Position numbers and translations under genes: made by a program
Notes under the pieces: model-generated
What the model saw: only the letters and a program-made list of their open reading frames with translations
What the model was told of the DNA's origin: nothing
The model's database searches: none
Shown here: positions 1 to 42,647 of the stretch, piece by piece
How the letters are laid out: the number at the start of each line of letters is the position of its first letter
Position numbering within the stretch: the stretch's first letter is position 1
Assembly: GCF_965641715.1 (NCBI RefSeq)
Contig: NZ_OZ282453.1
Strand: one strand, 5' to 3'
From: Escherichia coli
GTDB lineage: Bacteria > Pseudomonadota > Gammaproteobacteria > Enterobacterales > Enterobacteriaceae
DNA: 64,000 bases

Positions 1-5535
<5,535 letters not shown>

Positions 5536-7966: not shown

Positions 7967-8020
7967 TCCATCCCTTCACACAACCTGGCTCTTTCTTTTT
8001 TCAGATAAGACTGCTGGGCG

Positions 8021-8082
8021 ATCTGCCGACGCCAGGATATAACCATTAACAAGCGTCGGCAGATTGGTCATTTCTTTTTTTT
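8021..8082 (+). terminator. Candidate intrinsic terminator of the yfa operon
   Basis: Perfect 12-bp inverted repeat ATCTGCCGACGC / GCGTCGGCAGAT (8021-8032 and 8053-8064) followed by a T-rich run (8071-8082), about 55 bp after the yfaP stop. Confidence 0.45.
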
Positions 8083-8240
8083 CGTACTGAGAACTGTCCA
8101 TTTACTCCGGCTTTCCTGGTTAAGGCAATGGTTTCTAAGCGATACGCATTATTGCAATGGTGACAGAACATTGCGGTAACACGCTTTTACCGCTACCTTA
8201 ACCACACTCCATCGGTCACCTGAGGCGGAGCTTCGCCCCT

Positions 8241-23028: not shown

Positions 23029-23400
23029 GATGTGCCACATCCGGCAGGGTATGCCGGATGTGGCGTATGCTGATAAGACGCGTCAGCGTCGCATCAGGCA
23101 ACCGGCTCGGACGTTGGATGTCGGATGCGGCGTAACCGCCTTATCCGACCTGGCGGTTGCAGCACTTCACAGCGGTGTAGGCCTGATAAGACGCGCCAGC
23201 GTCGCATCAGGCAACCGGCTCGGGCGTTAGATGTCGGATGCGGCGTAACCGCCTTATCCGACCTGGCGGTTGCAGCACTTCACAACGGTGTAGGCCTGAT
23301 AAGACGCGCCAGCGTCGCATCAGGCAACCGGCCAGGGCGTTAGATGTCGGATGCGGCGTAACCGCTTTATCCAACCTACGGGGTGCCGCACTTCACAGCA
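23029..23400. repeat. REP hairpin plus tandem array of about three 113-bp BIME-like units
   Basis: Perfect 13-bp inverted repeat GCCACATCCGGCA/TGCCGGATGTGGC at 23033-23063. Unit TGATAAGACGCGCCAGCGTCGCATCAGGCAACCGGCTCGGGCGTTAGATGTCGGATGCGGCGTAACCGCCTTATCCGACCTGGCGGTTGCAGCACTTCACAACGGTGTAGGCC repeats at 23071, 23184 and 23297. Confidence 0.85.
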
Positions 23401-23402
23401 GT

Positions 23403-23891
23403 TTAGCGAACTACCGCGTTCTCAATCTTCTCTTCCGCCTTCCAGATGCGGTATTTCACATCCACATTGTCTGGCGTATACACCACGATCGGCAGCTTGC
23501 TGTTGTAACGCAGCATTCCGGTATCGCCGAGATATGCAGTGACAAATTTCTTCTCTTTCTTGCCATCCGGGCAGGCCATCATCGTGGAAACCGGCGAGCT
23601 AACTTTATCAAAGACATAATAATCATAGCCCCAGCCTTCCAGCGTTTTGCTTTCCAGCTTCCCACCGAGACGATGCAAATTGCAATCGACTTCCAGCGTC
23701 TGACCGATTAACAGTTCTACTTTCAGGGTAGATTCATCTTCTTGCGGGGTTAACTGAATCACCTGACGCTTCATGCCTTTTTCAGCTTGTGGATAAGGCG
23801 CGATTTTTTCCAGTGGCTGGACGCTCTCTGCCGCCCAGGCGGAAGTGGTGGCGAAAGCGGCAAACAATACTGCAGGTAGAATGGTCTTCAT
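23403..23891 (-). CDS. eco: Ecotin (periplasmic serine protease inhibitor)
   Basis: 162-aa [50 protein letters not shown]...; sequence recognised as ecotin. Confidence 0.95.
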
Positions 23892-35388: not shown

Positions 35389-36437
35389 GGTTTTTATTGG
35401 GCGTGCTGATGCTGATGATCTCCGGCTCAGCGCTGGCGACCATCGATGTGTTGCAGTTTAAAGATGAAGCACAGGAACAACAGTTCCGTCAGCTCACTGA
35501 AGAACTGCGTTGCCCGAAATGCCAGAACAACAGCATTGCCGATTCCAACTCGATGATTGCCACCGACCTGCGCCAGAAAGTGTATGAACTGATGCAGGAA
35601 GGTAAAAGTAAGAAAGAGATTGTTGATTATATGGTGGCGCGTTACGGCAACTTCGTCACTTACGATCCGCCGTTAACGCCGCTGACCGTGCTGCTGTGGG
35701 TGCTGCCAGTAGTGGCTATTGGCATTGGCGGTTGGGTCATTTACGCCCGCTCGCGGCGTCGGGTACGCGTGGTGCTGGAAGCGTTTCCTGAACAAAGCGT
35801 GCCGGAAGGTAAGCGTGCCGGATATGTTGTTTATCTGCCGGGTATTGTGGTGGCGTTAATTGTGGCTGGCGTCAGCTACTACCAGACTGGCAATTATCAG
35901 CAGGTGAAAATCTGGCAGCAGGCCACGGCACAGGCTCCGGCGTTGCTGGACAGGGCGCTGGATCCGAAAGCCGATCCGCTCAACGAAGAAGAGATGTCGC
36001 GCCTTGCGCTGGGGATGCGTACTCAACTGCAAAAAAATCCGGGAGATATAGAAGGTTGGATTATGTTGGGTCGCGTTGGCATGGCGCTGGGTAACGCCAG
36101 TATCGCCACCGATGCATACGCTACTGCGTATCGCCTCGATCCGAAAAACAGCGATGCCGCACTGGGTTATGCTGAAGCGTTGACACGTTCATCTGATCCC
36201 AACGACAACCGCCTCGGCGGCGAACTGCTGCGCCAGTTGGTGAGAACGGACCATAGCAATATTCGTGTGTTAAGCATGTATGCGTTTAATGCCTTTGAGC
36301 AGCAGCGATTTGGCGAAGCCGTTGCCGCGTGGGAGATGATGTTGAAACTCTTACCTGCCAACGATACTCGCCGTGCGGTGATTGAACGTAGTATCGCGCA
36401 GGCGATGCAACATTTGTCGCCGCAGGAGAGTAAATAA
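35385..36437 (+). CDS. ccmH: Cytochrome c haem lyase subunit CcmH
   Basis: 350-aa ORF; LRCPKC motif; C-terminal TPR-like domain. Confidence 0.94.
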   Translation: MRFLLGVLMLMISGSALATIDVLQFKDEAQEQQFRQLTEELRCPKCQNNSIADSNSMIATDLRQKVYELMQEGKSKKEIVDYMVARYGNFVTYDPPLTPLTVLLWVLPVVAIGIGGWVIYARSRRRVRVVLEAFPEQSVPEGKRAGYVVYLPGIVVALIVAGVSYYQTGNYQQVKIWQQATAQAPALLDRALDPKADPLNEEEMSRLALGMRTQLQKNPGDIEGWIMLGRVGMALGNASIATDAYATAYRLDPKNSDAALGYAEALTRSSDPNDNRLGGELLRQLVRTDHSNIRVLSMYAFNAFEQQRFGEAVAAWEMMLKLLPANDTRRAVIERSIAQAMQHLSPQESK

Positions 36438-36496
36438 AAAGTGGCCCGATGGTGATTCCATCAGGCCAGACTGATGACAAAGTGCGCTTAGTTTAT

Positions 36497-36595
36497 GCCG
36501 GATGCGGCGTGAACGCCTTATCCGGCCTACACAATCGTGTGAATTCAATAAATTGATCGATCCGCGTAGGCCTGATAAGCGTAGCGCATCAGGCA
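36497..36595. repeat. BIME (pair of inverted REP elements)
   Basis: GCCGGATGCGGCGTGAACGCCTTATCCGGCCTAC (36497-36530) and inverted partner GTAGGCCTGATAAGCGTAGCGCATCAGGC (36566-36594). Confidence 0.8.
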
Positions 36596-36617
36596 GTTTT
36601 GCGTTTGTCATAAATCT

Positions 36618-36652
36618 CAGCCCGATGATAAATCCATCGGGCTATTTTTATT
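36618..36652 (+). terminator. Intrinsic terminator at the end of the nap-ccm operon; overlaps the narP stop
   Basis: AGCCCGATG...CATCGGGCT hairpin followed by ATTTTTATT. Confidence 0.6.
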
Positions 36653-37295
36653 GTGCCCCGCGTTGTTGCAGGAACAGAATGGTGGCTGCCACGCGTGAGC
36701 GGACATTGAGTTTGCGCAGCAGATTGCGAATATGTACTTTTACTGTCTGCTCTGAAATATTCAACACCGAGGCAATCTGTTTATTTGACAGCCCCTGTGC
36801 CAGCTCGTGCAGAACATCCAGCTCGCGCTCCGTCAGCACGCTGAAGGGATCTTCTTCCGCGCCAAACATTTCACGTTCATGTAAGTACTGATTGACGCGT
36901 TCGCTAAAGACTTTGCTGCCTTTCGCTCCGGCACGAATCGCTTCCAGCAACACTTCCGGGTCGCTGTCTTTCAACAGATAACCGTCTGCGCCTGCGTCTA
37001 TCAGTGCAAAGACATCGCTGGAGGCATCTGATACGGTCAAGATAATAATTTGCGCGGTAACGCCATCCCTGCGCAAGGCATTGAGGGTATCCAGGCCACT
37101 CATACCTTTCATATTCAGATCCAGCAAGATCACGTCGATATCCAGTCTATTCGCCAGATCGATCGCGCTCGCGCCGTCGCCCGCTTCGGCGACCACTTCA
37201 AAGCCAGGATCAAGCTCCAGTAACTGACGAACACCGCGTCGCATAAGTGGATGATCATCCACAATCATCACCTGAAAAGGCGTTGCTTCAGGCAT
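36648..37295 (-). CDS. narP: Nitrate/nitrite response regulator NarP
   Basis: ORF 36648-37325 trimmed to ATG 37295 (MPEATPFQVMIVDDHPLMRRG..., 215 aa); receiver plus LuxR-type HTH. Confidence 0.93.
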   Translation of the reverse strand: MPEATPFQVMIVDDHPLMRRGVRQLLELDPGFEVVAEAGDGASAIDLANRLDIDVILLDLNMKGMSGLDTLNALRRDGVTAQIIILTVSDASSDVFALIDAGADGYLLKDSDPEVLLEAIRAGAKGSKVFSERVNQYLHEREMFGAEEDPFSVLTERELDVLHELAQGLSNKQIASVLNISEQTVKVHIRNLLRKLNVRSRVAATILFLQQRGAQ

Positions 37296-37614
37296 AGTAG
37301 TCTCCTGAGGTTTTATTAGAATCATTATGTTTGAGCGTAGCGTTGGTAACGCTACCAGGCGCGTGAATGTTACCCCATTTTATGTATGGACATGTAGTGA
37401 AAACTACAACCTTGCCGTTCGCTTTGGCATCATTTTCATTATAAAGACGGAATTTTGCATCAGCTTCTCATCAAGAAAAACAACTAAAAAATCAATCACA
37501 ATACTTGTGCATTTCTTTAAACAGTTTTTAAAAACTGATTCCGGGTATGGAGCTATGGGTATTTTCTGTACCCAATGCTTTTAACAGCAATTAATTTCAT
37601 AGGATGAAAGCTCA

Positions 37615-40206
37615 ATGCATCAATCTGGTTCTGTTTCTCTTTGTCGTTCCGCAATATCTGTTCTGGTGGCTACAGCGTTATATTCACCCATAGCATTGGC
37701 ATCAACAGTTGAGTATGGTGAGACAGTTGATGGTGTTGTCCTGGAAAAAGATATCCAGCTGGTTTATGGGACCGCCAATAATACGAAAATCAATCCTGGC
37801 GGAGAACAGCATATTAAAGAATTTGGTATAAGTAGTAATACTGAAATTAACGGCGGGTATCAGTACATTGAAATGAATGGCACCGCAGAATACTCCGTAT
37901 TAAATGATGGTTATCAAATTGTTCAAATGGGTGGCGCGGCAAACCAGACTACCCTCAATAATGGTGTGCTACAGGTTTATGGCGCAGCGAATGATCCCAC
38001 GATTAAAGGCGGGCGCTTAATCGTTGAAAAAGATGGGATTACCGTCCTTGCCGCTATCGAAAAGGGAGGATTACTGGAGGTTAAAGAGGGGGGATTAGCG
38101 ATTGCGGTAGATCAGAAAGCAGGCGGTGCTATTAAAGCAACCACGCGGGTCATGGAGGTATTCGGAACAAACCGTCTCGGTCAGTTCGATATCAAGAATG
38201 GAATTGCAAACAATATGCTGTTGGAAAACGGCGGAAGTTTGCGAGTTGAAGAAAATGACTTCGCTTATAATACTACTGTAGATAGTGGCGGCTTACTGGA
38301 GGTTATGGATGGCGGGACTGCAACTGGCGTTGATAAAAAAGCAGGCGGAAAATTAATTGTCTCAACGAATGCGCTGGAAGTGAGTGGTACAAACAGTAAA
38401 GGCCAATTTAGTATAAAAGATGGTGTGTCAAAAAATTATGAACTGGATGATGGTTCCGGGCTTATTGTTATGGAGGACACGCAGGCCATTGACACTATCC
38501 TCGATGAGCATGCCACTATGCAATCGCTGGGAAAGGATACTGGTACGAGAGTGCAGGCAAATGCGGTATATGATCTCGGTCGATCAGATCAGAATGGAAG
38601 TATAACGTATTCCTCTAAAGCCATCTCTGAAAATATGGTTATCAACAATGGCCGCGCTAACGTCTGGGCTGGCACAATGGTTAACGTTTCAGTCAGAGGG
38701 AATGATGGCATTCTTGAGGTCATGAAGCCGCAAATAAATTATGCACCCGCAATGTTGGTGGGTAAGGTAGTGGTTTCTGAGGGCGCTTCTTTTAGAACGC
38801 ATGGTGCCGTGGATACCAGCAAAGCGGACGTTTCGCTCGAAAATAGCGTATGGACCATCATTGCCGATATCACTACGACGAACCAAAACACCCTCCTCAA
38901 CTTAGCCAACCTTGCGATGTCTGACGCAAATGTGATTATGATGGATGAGCCAGTGACTCGTTCATCTGTGACGGCAAGTGCGGAAAATTTCATTACGTTG
39001 ACCACCAATACCCTGTCGGGAAACGGCAATTTTTATATGCGTACCGATATGGCTAATCATCAGAGCGATCAGCTCAACGTCACCGGTCAGGCAACAGGTG
39101 ATTTCAAAATATTCGTGACGGACACCGGTGCCAGCCCGGCAGCAGGAGATAGCCTTACACTGGTAACAACGGGCGGCGGTGATGCTGCATTTACGTTGGG
39201 CAATGCCGGAGGCGTTGTTGATATCGGTACGTATGAATATACCTTGCTGGATAATGGTAACCATAGCTGGAGTCTGGCAGAGAATCGCGCGCAAATTACC
39301 CCTTCAACCACTGATGTGCTAAATATGGCGGCAGCACAACCGCTGGTATTTGATGCAGAACTGGACACCGTGCGTGAGCGTCTTGGTAGCGTAAAAGGCG
39401 TTAGTTACGATACGGCGATGTGGAGTTCGGCAATTAACACCCGCAACAACGTGACCACTGATGCGGGAGCTGGTTTTGAGCAAACATTGACGGGCCTGAC
39501 GCTCGGTATCGATAGCCGTTTCTCCCGTGAAGAAAGCAGTACAATTCGCGGCTTGTTCTTTGGTTACTCTCATTCTGATATTGGTTTTGATCGCGGCGGA
39601 AAAGGTAATATCGATAGCTATACCCTGGGGGCTTATGCCGGTTGGGAGCATCAGAACGGTGCCTATGTTGATGGGGTGGTGAAAGTTGACCGTTTTGCCA
39701 ACACCATCCATGGCAAGATGAGTAATGGGGCAACAGCGTTTGGCGATTACAATAGTAACGGCGCGGGTGCTCATGTTGAGAGCGGGTTCCGTTGGGTTGA
39801 CGGATTGTGGAGTGTTAGACCCTATCTGGCCTTTACCGGCTTTACCACAGATGGTCAGGACTACACGTTATCAAACGGCATGCGCGCGGACGTGGGAAAT
39901 ACCCGGATATTACGCGCTGAAGCGGGAACGGCGGTAAGCTATCACATGGACCTGCAAAACGGTACGACGCTGGAACCCTGGCTGAAAGCCGCCGTGCGTC
40001 AGGAATACGCCGATTCTAACCAGGTGAAAGTTAATGACGATGGCAAATTTAATAATGATGTGGCTGGAACCAGTGGCGTTTATCAGGCTGGGATAAGGTC
40101 ATCGTTTACCCCGACGTTAAGCGGTCATTTGTCAGTCAGCTATGGCAATGGCGCAGGGGTAGAATCGCAGTGGAATACTCAGGCGGGTGTGGTCTGGACG
40201 TTCTGA
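37615..40206 (+). CDS. yejO: Autotransporter adhesin-like protein YejO, uninterrupted
   Basis: 863-aa ORF; signal peptide (SVLVATALYSPIALA/STVE); repetitive Gly/Asn-rich passenger region; C-terminal beta-barrel translocator ending ...QAGVVWTF (terminal aromatic). Confidence 0.85.
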   Translation: MHQSGSVSLCRSAISVLVATALYSPIALASTVEYGETVDGVVLEKDIQLVYGTANNTKINPGGEQHIKEFGISSNTEINGGYQYIEMNGTAEYSVLNDGYQIVQMGGAANQTTLNNGVLQVYGAANDPTIKGGRLIVEKDGITVLAAIEKGGLLEVKEGGLAIAVDQKAGGAIKATTRVMEVFGTNRLGQFDIKNGIANNMLLENGGSLRVEENDFAYNTTVDSGGLLEVMDGGTATGVDKKAGGKLIVSTNALEVSGTNSKGQFSIKDGVSKNYELDDGSGLIVMEDTQAIDTILDEHATMQSLGKDTGTRVQANAVYDLGRSDQNGSITYSSKAISENMVINNGRANVWAGTMVNVSVRGNDGILEVMKPQINYAPAMLVGKVVVSEGASFRTHGAVDTSKADVSLENSVWTIIADITTTNQNTLLNLANLAMSDANVIMMDEPVTRSSVTASAENFITLTTNTLSGNGNFYMRTDMANHQSDQLNVTGQATGDFKIFVTDTGASPAAGDSLTLVTTGGGDAAFTLGNAGGVVDIGTYEYTLLDNGNHSWSLAENRAQITPSTTDVLNMAAAQPLVFDAELDTVRERLGSVKGVSYDTAMWSSAINTRNNVTTDAGAGFEQTLTGLTLGIDSRFSREESSTIRGLFFGYSHSDIGFDRGGKGNIDSYTLGAYAGWEHQNGAYVDGVVKVDRFANTIHGKMSNGATAFGDYNSNGAGAHVESGFRWVDGLWSVRPYLAFTGFTTDGQDYTLSNGMRADVGNTRILRAEAGTAVSYHMDLQNGTTLEPWLKAAVRQEYADSNQVKVNDDGKFNNDVAGTSGVYQAGIRSSFTPTLSGHLSVSYGNGAGVESQWNTQAGVVWTF

Positions 40207-40267
40207 TAACAGAAAATAAACAGGCTGTGATGTGTCACGGTCTGTTTATCGAATTAATTGCAGATAT

Positions 40268-40300
40268 AAAAAAACCAACCGTAAGGGTTGGTTTTTTTTG
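40268..40300. terminator. Bidirectional intrinsic terminator (yejO on plus, proL on minus)
   Basis: AAAAAAACCAACCGTAAGGGTTGGTTTTTTTT: hairpin flanked by an A-run and a T-run. Confidence 0.85.
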
Positions 40301-40307
40301 GGATTTT

Positions 40308-40384
40308 TGGTCGGCACGAGAGGATTTGAACCTCCGACCCCCGACACCCCATGACGGTGCGCTACCAGGCTGCGCTACGTGCCG
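40308..40384 (-). tRNA. proL: tRNA-Pro (anticodon GGG)
   Basis: Minus strand reads CGGCACGTAGCGCAGCCTGGTAGCGCACCGTCATGGGGTGTCGGGGGTCGGAGGTTCAAATCCTCTCGTGCCGACCA: cloverleaf with GGG anticodon and encoded CCA end. Confidence 0.95.
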
Positions 40385-40458
40385 ACTCGTGGCTGTTAAT
40401 ACTACCGTTTTCCACACCGATTGCAAGTAAGATATTTCGCTAACTGATTTATAATTAA

Positions 40459-42219
40459 TCAGTTAGCGATAAAACGCTTCTCGTCTGTCAGTACTTGCAA
40501 TAACAAACTTAACTGTGGTTTTTCATCTTTCACTCTTTCACCACGTAAGTTGTAAGTGCGGTATTTACCGTTATTGTTCAGCACCAGCGTCTTTTTCGGG
40601 GTGGTAATTGCCAGCGTATCGTTATCCGCTGCGGTAACCCAGTAATGACGGCGTTGAGGGTTGAACAAATCCTGACCTTGCGAATATTCGCTGGCAGGTG
40701 TGCTGACATGTAGCAGGCGTTGCATCAGCGTCGTCATCAGATCGGTATGATCAGTCAGCGCATTAATACGCTGCGCCGGCGTGCCTGGCCAGTGAATCAC
40801 TAATGGCACCTGCAGATGACCGTGGGACCAGTCAAAGGTTTCTTCCTCTTCGCTCAGTGGAATACCCCGACCGGCAGTGATAATCACCACCGTATTGTCC
40901 AGTTTGCCAGAATCACGCAGTGCATTGAGCACGCGGTTGATCTGGTCATCGACATTGCCTGCCGCCCGGCTATATTTCCGTGCAAAAGCCTGCTGATTGC
41001 TGTCGTCAATGTTAGTACCATTGAAAGAGACCCACGAGAACCAGCGGTTATCTTCTTGTGCGTAGCGGCCAAGCCAGTTGATCCACTGCGTGGCGGTCTG
41101 CTCGTCGGATTGGGTGCGTACGCTCGGCATCGAGAAATCTGACAACAATGCCTGGCGATACAGCGGGCTGGTAAAGCCATCTGATGAGAATAACCCCAGC
41201 TGATAGCCTTGCTGATTAAGCGCAGTAATTAATGCCGCAGGCGTACGGGTCGACAGAATGCCGTCCATATAGCTCGGCGAGATGCCATAGAACAGGCCAA
41301 AGATGCCGTTGTCTGTAGTGTTGCCGGAGCTCATATGGCGCGTGAACGAAATATTTTGCTCAGCAAAACCTGCCAGCGCAGGCATCTGCTTCTCGAAGCG
41401 TGAGTAGTTCAGGCCATCGACAGTAATCAACAGCACATTCTGCCCGGTGCCCATATCGCGATAGCGCAGTTCGCTTAACGGATACTGAACGGAAACGGCG
41501 TCTGGATTACCTTGCTCAATAAGACGGCGTTGATACTCCTGCGCATCAAGCAGGCCATGCTTCTCAAGAAAACGTCGCGCCGTCATCGGGTACGAAAGCG
41601 GCAGGTTAGCGCGCTGCATGGTGATCGGGCGATAGAAGTTGGCATCGGCCCAGATATACACCACATGCGAGGCGATAAAGGCGATAAATAAGAATGCGGC
41701 CAGCGGGCGCGCGAAGCGTCGACGACGCGTCAGGCTGCGCAGCTTTTGCCAGCTCCACGTCGCAAACACCAGTTCAAGCAATAAAATAACCGGCACGCTG
41801 ATGAACATCAGCTGCCAGTCGCGCGCCATCTCATTTTCGTCTGGGTTGATAACCAGTTGCCAGACGATGGGATTAAGATGGAGATGGAAACGAGTAAAGA
41901 CTTCGCTATCGATCAGTAATAGCGTCATTCCCGCCGTTGCCAGAATGACGGACAAAAACCTCATCAGCCTCTGGGAGCCGACGATAAAGGTCAGCGGGAA
42001 GAGGATCAGCAAGTAGGCGGCGAACACCAGGAAGCTGAAATGGCCGATAATGCTTACGTAGGAATAAATGCGACCAGCAAGCGTGGTCGGCCAGTCGGCG
42101 ATAAACAGGTAACGGCTGCCAATGACGAGCGAAAGCAGAATATTGAACAGTGCAAACCAGTGCCCCCAACTGACCATCTGGGAGACTTTTTCACGGTAGC
42201 GCTGACGATGAGTTACCAT
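40459..42219 (-). CDS. yejM: Inner-membrane protein YejM/PbgA (LapC; sulfatase-like periplasmic domain)
   Basis: 586-aa ORF; N-terminal TM helices plus alkaline-phosphatase-superfamily domain. Confidence 0.93.
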   Translation of the reverse strand: MVTHRQRYREKVSQMVSWGHWFALFNILLSLVIGSRYLFIADWPTTLAGRIYSYVSIIGHFSFLVFAAYLLILFPLTFIVGSQRLMRFLSVILATAGMTLLLIDSEVFTRFHLHLNPIVWQLVINPDENEMARDWQLMFISVPVILLLELVFATWSWQKLRSLTRRRRFARPLAAFLFIAFIASHVVYIWADANFYRPITMQRANLPLSYPMTARRFLEKHGLLDAQEYQRRLIEQGNPDAVSVQYPLSELRYRDMGTGQNVLLITVDGLNYSRFEKQMPALAGFAEQNISFTRHMSSGNTTDNGIFGLFYGISPSYMDGILSTRTPAALITALNQQGYQLGLFSSDGFTSPLYRQALLSDFSMPSVRTQSDEQTATQWINWLGRYAQEDNRWFSWVSFNGTNIDDSNQQAFARKYSRAAGNVDDQINRVLNALRDSGKLDNTVVIITAGRGIPLSEEEETFDWSHGHLQVPLVIHWPGTPAQRINALTDHTDLMTTLMQRLLHVSTPASEYSQGQDLFNPQRRHYWVTAADNDTLAITTPKKTLVLNNNGKYRTYNLRGERVKDEKPQLSLLLQVLTDEKRFIAN

Positions 42220-42238
42220 AACCTGTTATCTGTTTCCC

Positions 42239-42466
42239 TTAGTGCGCTTTGTCTTCGTTGATAGAGGACTGTAAGGCGCGGGCAAAAGAGTTGGCAATTG
42301 CCTGGCGTTGGGCCGGGGCAATGCTGGTGTTGATAAGGTTAGTGACCATGTTGCCTAACACCATCAGGGAAAGGTCGGTCGGAGCCTTATGTTTTTCCAG
42401 TACGTTGAGCAGCTCTGCGAGCAATTGTTCAACCTGTTCATCACTGTAGCGGGAAATTTGTGGCAT
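42239..42466 (-). CDS. yejL: UPF0352 family protein YejL
   Basis: 75-aa [44 protein letters not shown]... Confidence 0.9.
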
Positions 42467-42647
42467 AAATCGAAATCAGTTAATTGATGAAAGGGCAACA
42501 TATTACCGTAGCAACGGTTTTTTTTCTGCTTTTTTATGCGTTAAATCATTCTCGTTACGCCGCCTTCTGTAAAATGACCGCCATCTTTTATTGCGTCGCT
42601 TAACCGGCGGTGGTTGAATACCGCCCGGTCTTAAAGGAGAGTTTATC

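Follow-up and report, generated by a model that had tools for sequence, protein, structure and literature searches.

An uninterrupted allele of the AIDA-I/Ag43-like autotransporter gene yejO in the narP–proL interval of an Escherichia coli chromosome

The yejO gene found in the 64,000-nucleotide stretch of E. coli DNA analysed here (hereafter, the window) is an intact chromosomal allele. In our judgement, with a probability of roughly 85%, its product is an AIDA-I/Ag43-like autotransporter of the classical type (type Va) whose surface β-helix most likely serves in adhesion or aggregation, and the gene represents an old resident of the chromosome that is kept by purifying selection and has been lost in many lineages. 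This reading is built on an open frame, a complete type Va domain set, an Ag43-like β-helix fold of the passenger and purifying selection, each of which is documented below. An intact yejO is the common, ancestral and already known state, and the finding is in this sense correct but ordinary; it matters little beyond the correct annotation of a potentially functional adhesin-like surface protein that is absent from K-12. K-12 does not serve well as a reference for yejO, and the intact natural allele of the window could readily be used as a template to study expression and adhesion.

The yejO coding sequence spans positions 37615..40206 of the window on the plus strand and comprises 863 codons followed by a stop codon. 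Its re-translation yielded an ATG start, 863 amino acids and neither an internal stop nor a frameshift, in agreement with the single uninterrupted ORF claimed by an earlier, sequence-only reading of this DNA. The encoded protein begins with MHQSGSVSLCRSAISVLVATALYSPIALA, followed after the inferred cleavage site by STVEY, and ends in ...AGVVWTF; its length, together with three concordant domain matches, places the frame far beyond what chance would produce. Within the 64-kb window, the gene is preceded by ccmG/dsbE, ccmH and the divergent narP, and followed by proL, yejM/lapC, yejL and yejK. ARAGORN identified a tRNA-Pro(GGG) at 40308..40384 on the minus strand as the sole tRNA of the window. 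This tRNA gene (Rfam RF00005, 54.9 bits), which carries the name proL in the K-12 annotation, lies 101 nt past the yejO stop codon, and an Rfam scan of positions 36000-42600 returned nothing beyond it. A hairpin at 40268..40298, consisting of a 13-pair stem followed by a T run and bordered by A/T runs on both sides, separates the yejO stop codon from the 3′ end of proL and resembles a terminator usable from either direction. The order narP–yejO–proL–yejM, the near-identity to named YejO proteins and the RefSeq annotation of the same gene in the same narP–proL slot as "yejO: autotransporter YejO" bear out both the gene identity and the adjacency to proL that had been proposed from the sequence.

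The N-terminal Sec signal peptide of a type Va autotransporter was recognized by inspection at codons 1-29 (37615..37701), with an inferred cleavage site between ALA and ST. It comprises the basic residue R11, a hydrophobic core (residues 12-25) and the A-L-A stretch preceding S30, and residues 1-28 are unstructured in the AlphaFold2 (AF2) model. The sole cysteine of the protein, C10, precedes the hydrophobic core in a context that is not lipobox-like; thus, on inspection, the N-terminus was read as an ordinary Sec signal peptide. The passenger domain that follows (codons 30-560, 37702..39294) was recognized from the AF2 model, Foldseek and phmmer against the PDB as a right-handed β-helix, and its composition (Gly 12.2%, Asn 8.7%) makes the earlier description of a repetitive Gly/Asn-rich passenger a fair one. 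Its repetitive character resides in two tandem 74-aa AIDA-type units at codons 151-298 (38065..38508), which correspond to residues 151-224 and 225-298 and are identical at 36 of their 74 positions. The Pfam AIDA profile PF16168 matched YejO in two stretches (2.9e-51, 171.8 bits) and the strand-loop-strand repeat profile TIGR04415 in three (62.5 bits, cutoff 30), so that the passenger contains the AIDA-type strand-loop-strand repeats characteristic of the AIDA-I type. A DNA-level repeat search within yejO gave just short, chance-level pairs, and the repeats are therefore visible in the protein only. One repeat unit (222 nt) has been lost exactly and in frame from the yejO gene of strain F070.

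The distal part of the passenger contains a pertactin-type junction (autochaperone) region at codons 431-555 (38905..39279), matched by PF03212 (6.7e-46) and by pertactin in the PDB (1dab, 6.8e-18). The linker and the C-terminal translocator β-barrel occupy codons 561-863 (39295..40203). The Autotransporter β-domain profile PF03797 aligned with residues 602-841 over profile positions 1-254 of 255 (6.2e-46, 157.7 bits, cutoff 26), TIGR01414 with residues 456-863 over positions 2-432 of 432 (6e-110, 368 bits, cutoff 16), and the BrkA barrel 3qq2 with residues 582-863 over positions 3-284 of 284 (phmmer against the PDB, 1.6e-17), indicating that the barrel required of a type Va protein is complete. 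Outer-membrane barrels usually have a C-terminal phenylalanine, and the terminal Phe of VVWTF provides the aromatic residue of such an outer-membrane β-signal. Hence, the signal peptide (by inspection) and the barrel ending in VVWTF (by PF03797 and TIGR01414), both put forward earlier, hold up, and the domain prediction that had been suggested as a check for a pertactin-like β-helix and an autotransporter barrel returned matches to the AIDA, Pertactin and Autotransporter profiles.

The AF2 model, built on a 12-sequence alignment of close homologues, shows short β-strands throughout residues 30-500 with a pLDDT of about 95. With this alignment, the pLDDT remained below 50 over residues 505-863, which were left unfolded, and the barrel, not being modelled with confidence, is therefore assigned from the sequence profiles. 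When the passenger model was compared with the PDB by Foldseek, Ag43 came out on top (7koh, 1.5e-21; 4kh3, 7.4e-18), followed by TibA (1.2e-09) and pertactin (4.5e-05), which supplies the β-helix passenger fold of the type Va class. A phmmer search of YejO against the PDB also retrieved Ag43 (1.6e-36), together with Vag8 (1.8e-34).

Ag43 (Flu; PDB 4kh3, 7koh) and TibA (4q1q) are thus the best sequence and fold matches of YejO, with which they share the type Va architecture and a β-helix passenger bearing AIDA-type repeats. However, the identity to these proteins is just about 25%, and the YejO passenger is shorter. The family models specific to Ag43 and AIDA-I scored YejO far below their cutoffs of 1200 bits (129 bits for the Ag43 equivalog NF033177 and 68 bits for the AIDA-I equivalog NF033176). 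On these scores, YejO appears as a separate member of the broad AIDA-I type and is to be regarded as neither Ag43 nor AIDA-I. The likeness to the Bordetella proteins pertactin, BrkA and Vag8 is of another kind: their junction (PF03212) and translocator barrel align over the full length with those of YejO, whereas their N-terminal passengers are unrelated to the YejO passenger, and host and biology differ as well. In AIDA-I-type autotransporters, the repeats are glycosylated by a heptosyltransferase of the Aah/TibC kind; within the window, no heptosyltransferase gene (Aah/TibC) adjoins yejO, whose neighbours are narP and proL/yejM only.

Ag43, AIDA-I and TibA are self-associating autotransporters of the AIDA-I type. 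By analogy with type Va secretion in general, the YejO precursor would cross the inner membrane through Sec, the BAM complex would insert its C-terminal barrel into the outer membrane, and the passenger would be threaded out with its C-terminus first. Once outside, the passenger would fold into a surface β-helix rod, nucleated by the junction region, and this rod would most likely mediate adhesion or cell-cell aggregation, as Ag43 and TibA do. Such a role is considered the likeliest because these two proteins are the closest structural relatives of YejO. The E. coli literature searched contained no experimental evidence for the expression, surface display, adhesion or function of YejO.

The window differs from K-12 in the state of the gene. 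The K-12 counterpart, b2190, occupies the same narP–proL slot, with 98.2-98.6% nucleotide identity to the window across the locus, and the MG1655 annotation describes it as a two-piece pseudogene ("adhesin-like autotransporter YejO") whose first fragment of 67 nt and second fragment of 2525 nt are separated by IS5K (insH8). Junction alignment revealed that the 1195-bp IS5 of MG1655 is inserted after window position 37681, corresponding to yejO nt 67 in codon 23, and that the target TTAT (37678..37681, plus strand) is duplicated on both sides of the element; in the window this site is empty and the frame is open. Removal of IS5 and one TTAT copy from the K-12 sequence restored an 863-aa ORF with 19 substitutions relative to the window protein (844/863 identical), so that K-12 yejO carries no lesion other than IS5. 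The disruption of the K-12 gene by IS5 is likewise stated in PMC11005336 and PMC11677980. Thus, annotation, alignment and published statement (PMC11005336) concur with the earlier view that K-12 yejO is a disrupted pseudogene, and alignment with the K-12 region, which had been proposed as a check, showed a K-12 copy that is not intact next to a window copy without frameshift or stop.

The intact allele is widespread. NCBI lists the exact 863-aa window protein on 32 contigs under the name "autotransporter YejO [Escherichia coli]", and the 90%-identity cluster to which it belongs contains 16,859 member sequences. Among chromosomes, that of strain A16 matches best, with 99.8% identity across the locus and an annotated intact yejO. 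The intact proteins WP_001625518.1 (strain A16) and WP_000554210.1 (ERL06-2503) are likewise 863 aa long with the same architecture, and differ from the window protein by allelic substitutions only, nothing of substance. A match to the yejO locus was found in 5425 of 5426 complete E. coli genomes, and 4281 of them hold at least 80% of the locus in one place; the remaining 1145 genomes carry large internal deletions at the locus, as exemplified by strain DA33135, which is deleted for window positions 38087-39090 and 39548-40176. These deletion genomes agree with a report (Wells et al. 2010, as cited in PMC3426408) in which commensal and diarrhoeagenic E. coli possess yejO and UPEC genomes all have a truncated copy. 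In addition, yejO has been reported missing from ST131 (PMC5654935).

Besides deletions, a widespread pseudogene allele was detected by hit sampling and allele probes at codon W789 (39979..39981, plus strand), which reads TGG in the window and TGA in that allele. Allele-specific 30-mer probes counted the W789* form in 1158 complete E. coli genomes and TGG in 2968, so that a single nonsense allele, found on at least two allelic backgrounds, accounts for 21% of complete genomes. A 33-mer probe across the K-12 IS5 junction was present in 357 complete genomes. On the deletion, W789* and IS5 junction counts alone, at least 2660 of 5426 genomes (49%) have an inactivated yejO. The variety of lesions was also apparent when 39 chromosomal rows were sampled at even steps down the match ranking, 28 of which were classified and 11 left unclassified, the state of rows H8, H9 and H28 and of seven of the eight deletion rows being taken from coverage and feature names only. 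Among the 28 classified rows, nine had an intact 863-codon ORF, two an in-frame loss of one 74-aa repeat unit, four the W789* nonsense codon, three the K-12-type IS5 insertion, one an IS3 insertion, one a frameshift and eight a large deletion. On this basis, strains with an uninterrupted yejO make up roughly one-third to one-half of the E. coli that have been sequenced. With the gene lost from roughly half, or more, of the complete E. coli genomes, yejO must be regarded as dispensable, and its mixture of intact and inactivated alleles illustrates on a small scale how surface proteins disappear from particular lineages. A mildly interesting by-product of this analysis is how often and in how many ways yejO has been inactivated across E. 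coli, with one nonsense allele reaching such a frequency.

An intact YejO orthologue of 862 aa, with 76% amino acid identity, was found in a genome 87-89% identical to the window in nucleotides, which would belong to another Escherichia species or to a deep clade. The gene lies there between narP and yejM, in the same arrangement as in the window, and this shared position in a divergent Escherichia identifies yejO as an old resident of the narP–proL interval. The dN/dS ratio between the window gene and this orthologue is 0.21 for the whole gene and falls from 0.32 in the passenger to 0.12 in the junction and 0.07 in the linker and barrel; the flanking narP, yejM, ccmH and yejK give 0.00-0.03 in the same comparison of genomes. 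Among 11 intact E. coli alleles, the corresponding values are 0.17 for the whole gene, 0.24 for the passenger and 0.08 for the barrel. These ratios (dN/dS 0.17-0.21) point to purifying selection on the intact alleles, and the gradient, in which the translocator is conserved and the exposed part evolves faster, is the pattern that a functional surface protein, and not neutral drift, would leave. In view of this selection, it is plausible that the window strain, as had been suggested, may express a functional adhesin.

The promoter and leader of yejO presumably lie in the 319-bp divergent narP–yejO intergenic region (37296..37614; 36.4% G+C). An AGGA sequence at 37601-37604 is placed 10 nt before the yejO ATG. 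A consensus scan of the upstream region revealed no σ70 match of at least 9/12, and a relaxed scan returned 8/12 matches only. The best candidate for a NarL/NarP 7-2-7 site in the intergenic region, TACCCCATTTTATGTA at 37371, has three mismatches and is at chance level. Neither this region (37296-37614) nor the yejO coding sequence contains slippery simple-sequence tracts. Furthermore, whereas agn43 has a Dam/OxyR switch, the yejO regulatory region (37296-37614) is devoid of GATC sites, so that yejO has no switch of the agn43 type.

An alternative reading is that the intact gene is cryptic, that is, transcriptionally silent (for example, silenced by H-NS), and that the phenotype of a strain carrying it would equal that of K-12 under ordinary conditions. 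Other E. coli autotransporter adhesin genes are H-NS-silenced, and the base composition, with an A+T-rich upstream region and a G+C content of 42-47% in the first half of yejO as opposed to 51-58% in the flanks, makes H-NS silencing a reasonable inference here. The lack of a σ70 match of at least 9/12 upstream points in the same direction, and so does the detection of the K-12 yejO fragment in just 106 of 3,376 RNA-seq sets, which places it among the least often detected genes (PMC10392735). However, this last observation concerns a copy disrupted by IS5, and the low dN/dS ratios imply that YejO is made and matters somewhere. We consider that expression of yejO is probably low under laboratory conditions, and give silence of the intact gene somewhat less than even odds.

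A more tentative proposal concerns the coexistence of conserved and ruined alleles. Independent lesions have inactivated the gene in many lineages of E. coli, and where it is intact, it is under purifying selection. The IS5 insertion in K-12, the IS3 insertion, the UPEC/B2-type deletions, the frameshift of an O111:H8 strain and the W789* codon could together reflect conflicting selection, in which yejO is kept where intact, yet repeatedly and independently knocked out, and the window allele would then represent a testable form of this trade-off. Should this proposal, which we regard as rather unlikely, be true, loss of YejO would pay in some niches, for instance if phages used the protein as a receptor, if immune responses targeted it or if it counteracted virulence.

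The same lesions, with the addition of an ATG>ATT start change and counting two or more deletion forms, would also be expected if yejO were functionless across E. coli and the window copy were merely one not yet hit; inactivation in at least 49% of complete genomes fits such neutral decay. Nevertheless, dN/dS lies far below 1 both within E. coli and between species, the barrel-to-passenger gradient is steep, and the frame is still open after about 12% nucleotide divergence, which makes the absence of any function improbable and favours a gene maintained by purifying selection in the lineages that retain it.

The location beside a tRNA gene does not account for this variability. The window is colinear with K-12 from 37678 to 64000 (98.6% identity, a single gap), with no integrase, att repeat or extra DNA near yejO and proL, in keeping with the earlier remark that this stretch lacks an integrase or island. 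The notion that yejO varies among strains because it belongs to an island inserted at the proL tRNA gene draws on its adjacency to proL, the lower G+C of the passenger region relative to the flanks and the use of proL as an integration site in other strains (PMC4924310), but it is contradicted by synteny and has hardly any chance of being correct, since the K-12 sequence runs colinear with this region, at least a yejO remnant occupies this place in 5425 of 5426 genomes, another Escherichia carries the gene in the same slot, and true islands sit between yejO and proL with yejO outside. The sequence-only reading had regarded a tRNA neighbourhood as a typical setting for strain-variable surface genes, which does not explain the case of yejO: strains differ by the decay of yejO, and the divergent Escherichia keeps the same slot.

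In other strains, proL is a real integration site, at which elements insert between yejO and proL. These elements leave yejO outside; the variation of yejO reflects gene decay and not the gain of an island. In the O111:H8 strain, where yejO is frameshifted, homology to the window stops about 22 nt inside the 3′ end of proL, and the element located between the two genes encodes an integrase, a RepA-type helicase, an Icd-like protein, a capsid protein and a small terminase. In Shigella flexneri 1c, tRNA-Pro and yejO are separated by the remnant of the gtrIC prophage (PMC4924310).

Of 5426 complete E. coli genomes, 1158 carry a nonsense allele of yejO, designated W789*, as counted with an allele-specific 30-mer probe. 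In this allele TGA replaces the TGG codon of the window (39979–39981), and its stop codon lies inside the YejO barrel. The observation at codon W789 draws on seven further loci (L007, L011, L012, L014, L015, L016 and L019). The allele occurs on at least two backgrounds, which differ from one another by 26–27 nt, and in three of four sampled copies the start codon was also changed, from ATG to ATT.

In strain RM10410 (L020, locus 316–2907), RefSeq places the start of yejO inside the frame, at codon 18, which gives a gene of 2541 nt; the full 863-codon frame is open in this strain, with the same ATG as in the window. The codon-18 start is an inconsistency of start-site annotation, and it would remove half of the signal peptide.

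Within the passenger, the yejO gene of strain F070 (L008) carries a 222-nt in-frame deletion (74 aa; equivalent to window 38127–38286 plus the repeat overlap) that eliminates exactly one of the two tandem AIDA-type repeat units, leaving an ORF of 789 aa. This one-unit deletion suggests that recombination between the AIDA-type units gives rise to a variable repeat number. Further length variants of 799, 823 and 829 aa were present in the list of homologues.

In E. coli O111:H8 strain 7-32 9A, whose yejO gene is frameshifted, a phage-satellite-like element (L007 12028–21011) separates yejO from proL, at whose 3' end it is integrated. This element encodes an integrase, a RepA-family helicase, an Icd-like protein, a major capsid protein and a small terminase. 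Upstream of yejO, the ccmH–narP interval (window 36467–36619) contains a REP/BIME-like insert of approximately 153 bp, which was found in the window and in K-12 and is missing from strains A16, DA33135 and O111:H8 7-32 9A, and from the L011 genome. Another REP-like sequence, a 113-bp unit, forms a tandem array of 3.0 copies (92% match) in the eco–mqo intergenic region (window 23070–23406); the corresponding K-12 array (approximately 2304400–2305065) appears to hold about twice that copy number.

Elsewhere in the window, the atoSCDAEB cluster, which spans approximately 7.4 kb in K-12 (2319955–2327366), is missing in full from the rcsC–yfaP interval (window 7967–8162), its place being filled by approximately 195 bp of unrelated sequence. 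Furthermore, the yfaS counterpart (window 916–5535, + strand) is a single ORF of 1539 aa, whereas the K-12 MG1655 annotation lists yfaS as a pseudogene (b4500); besides yejO, yfaS is a second gene of the window that is open here and broken in K-12.
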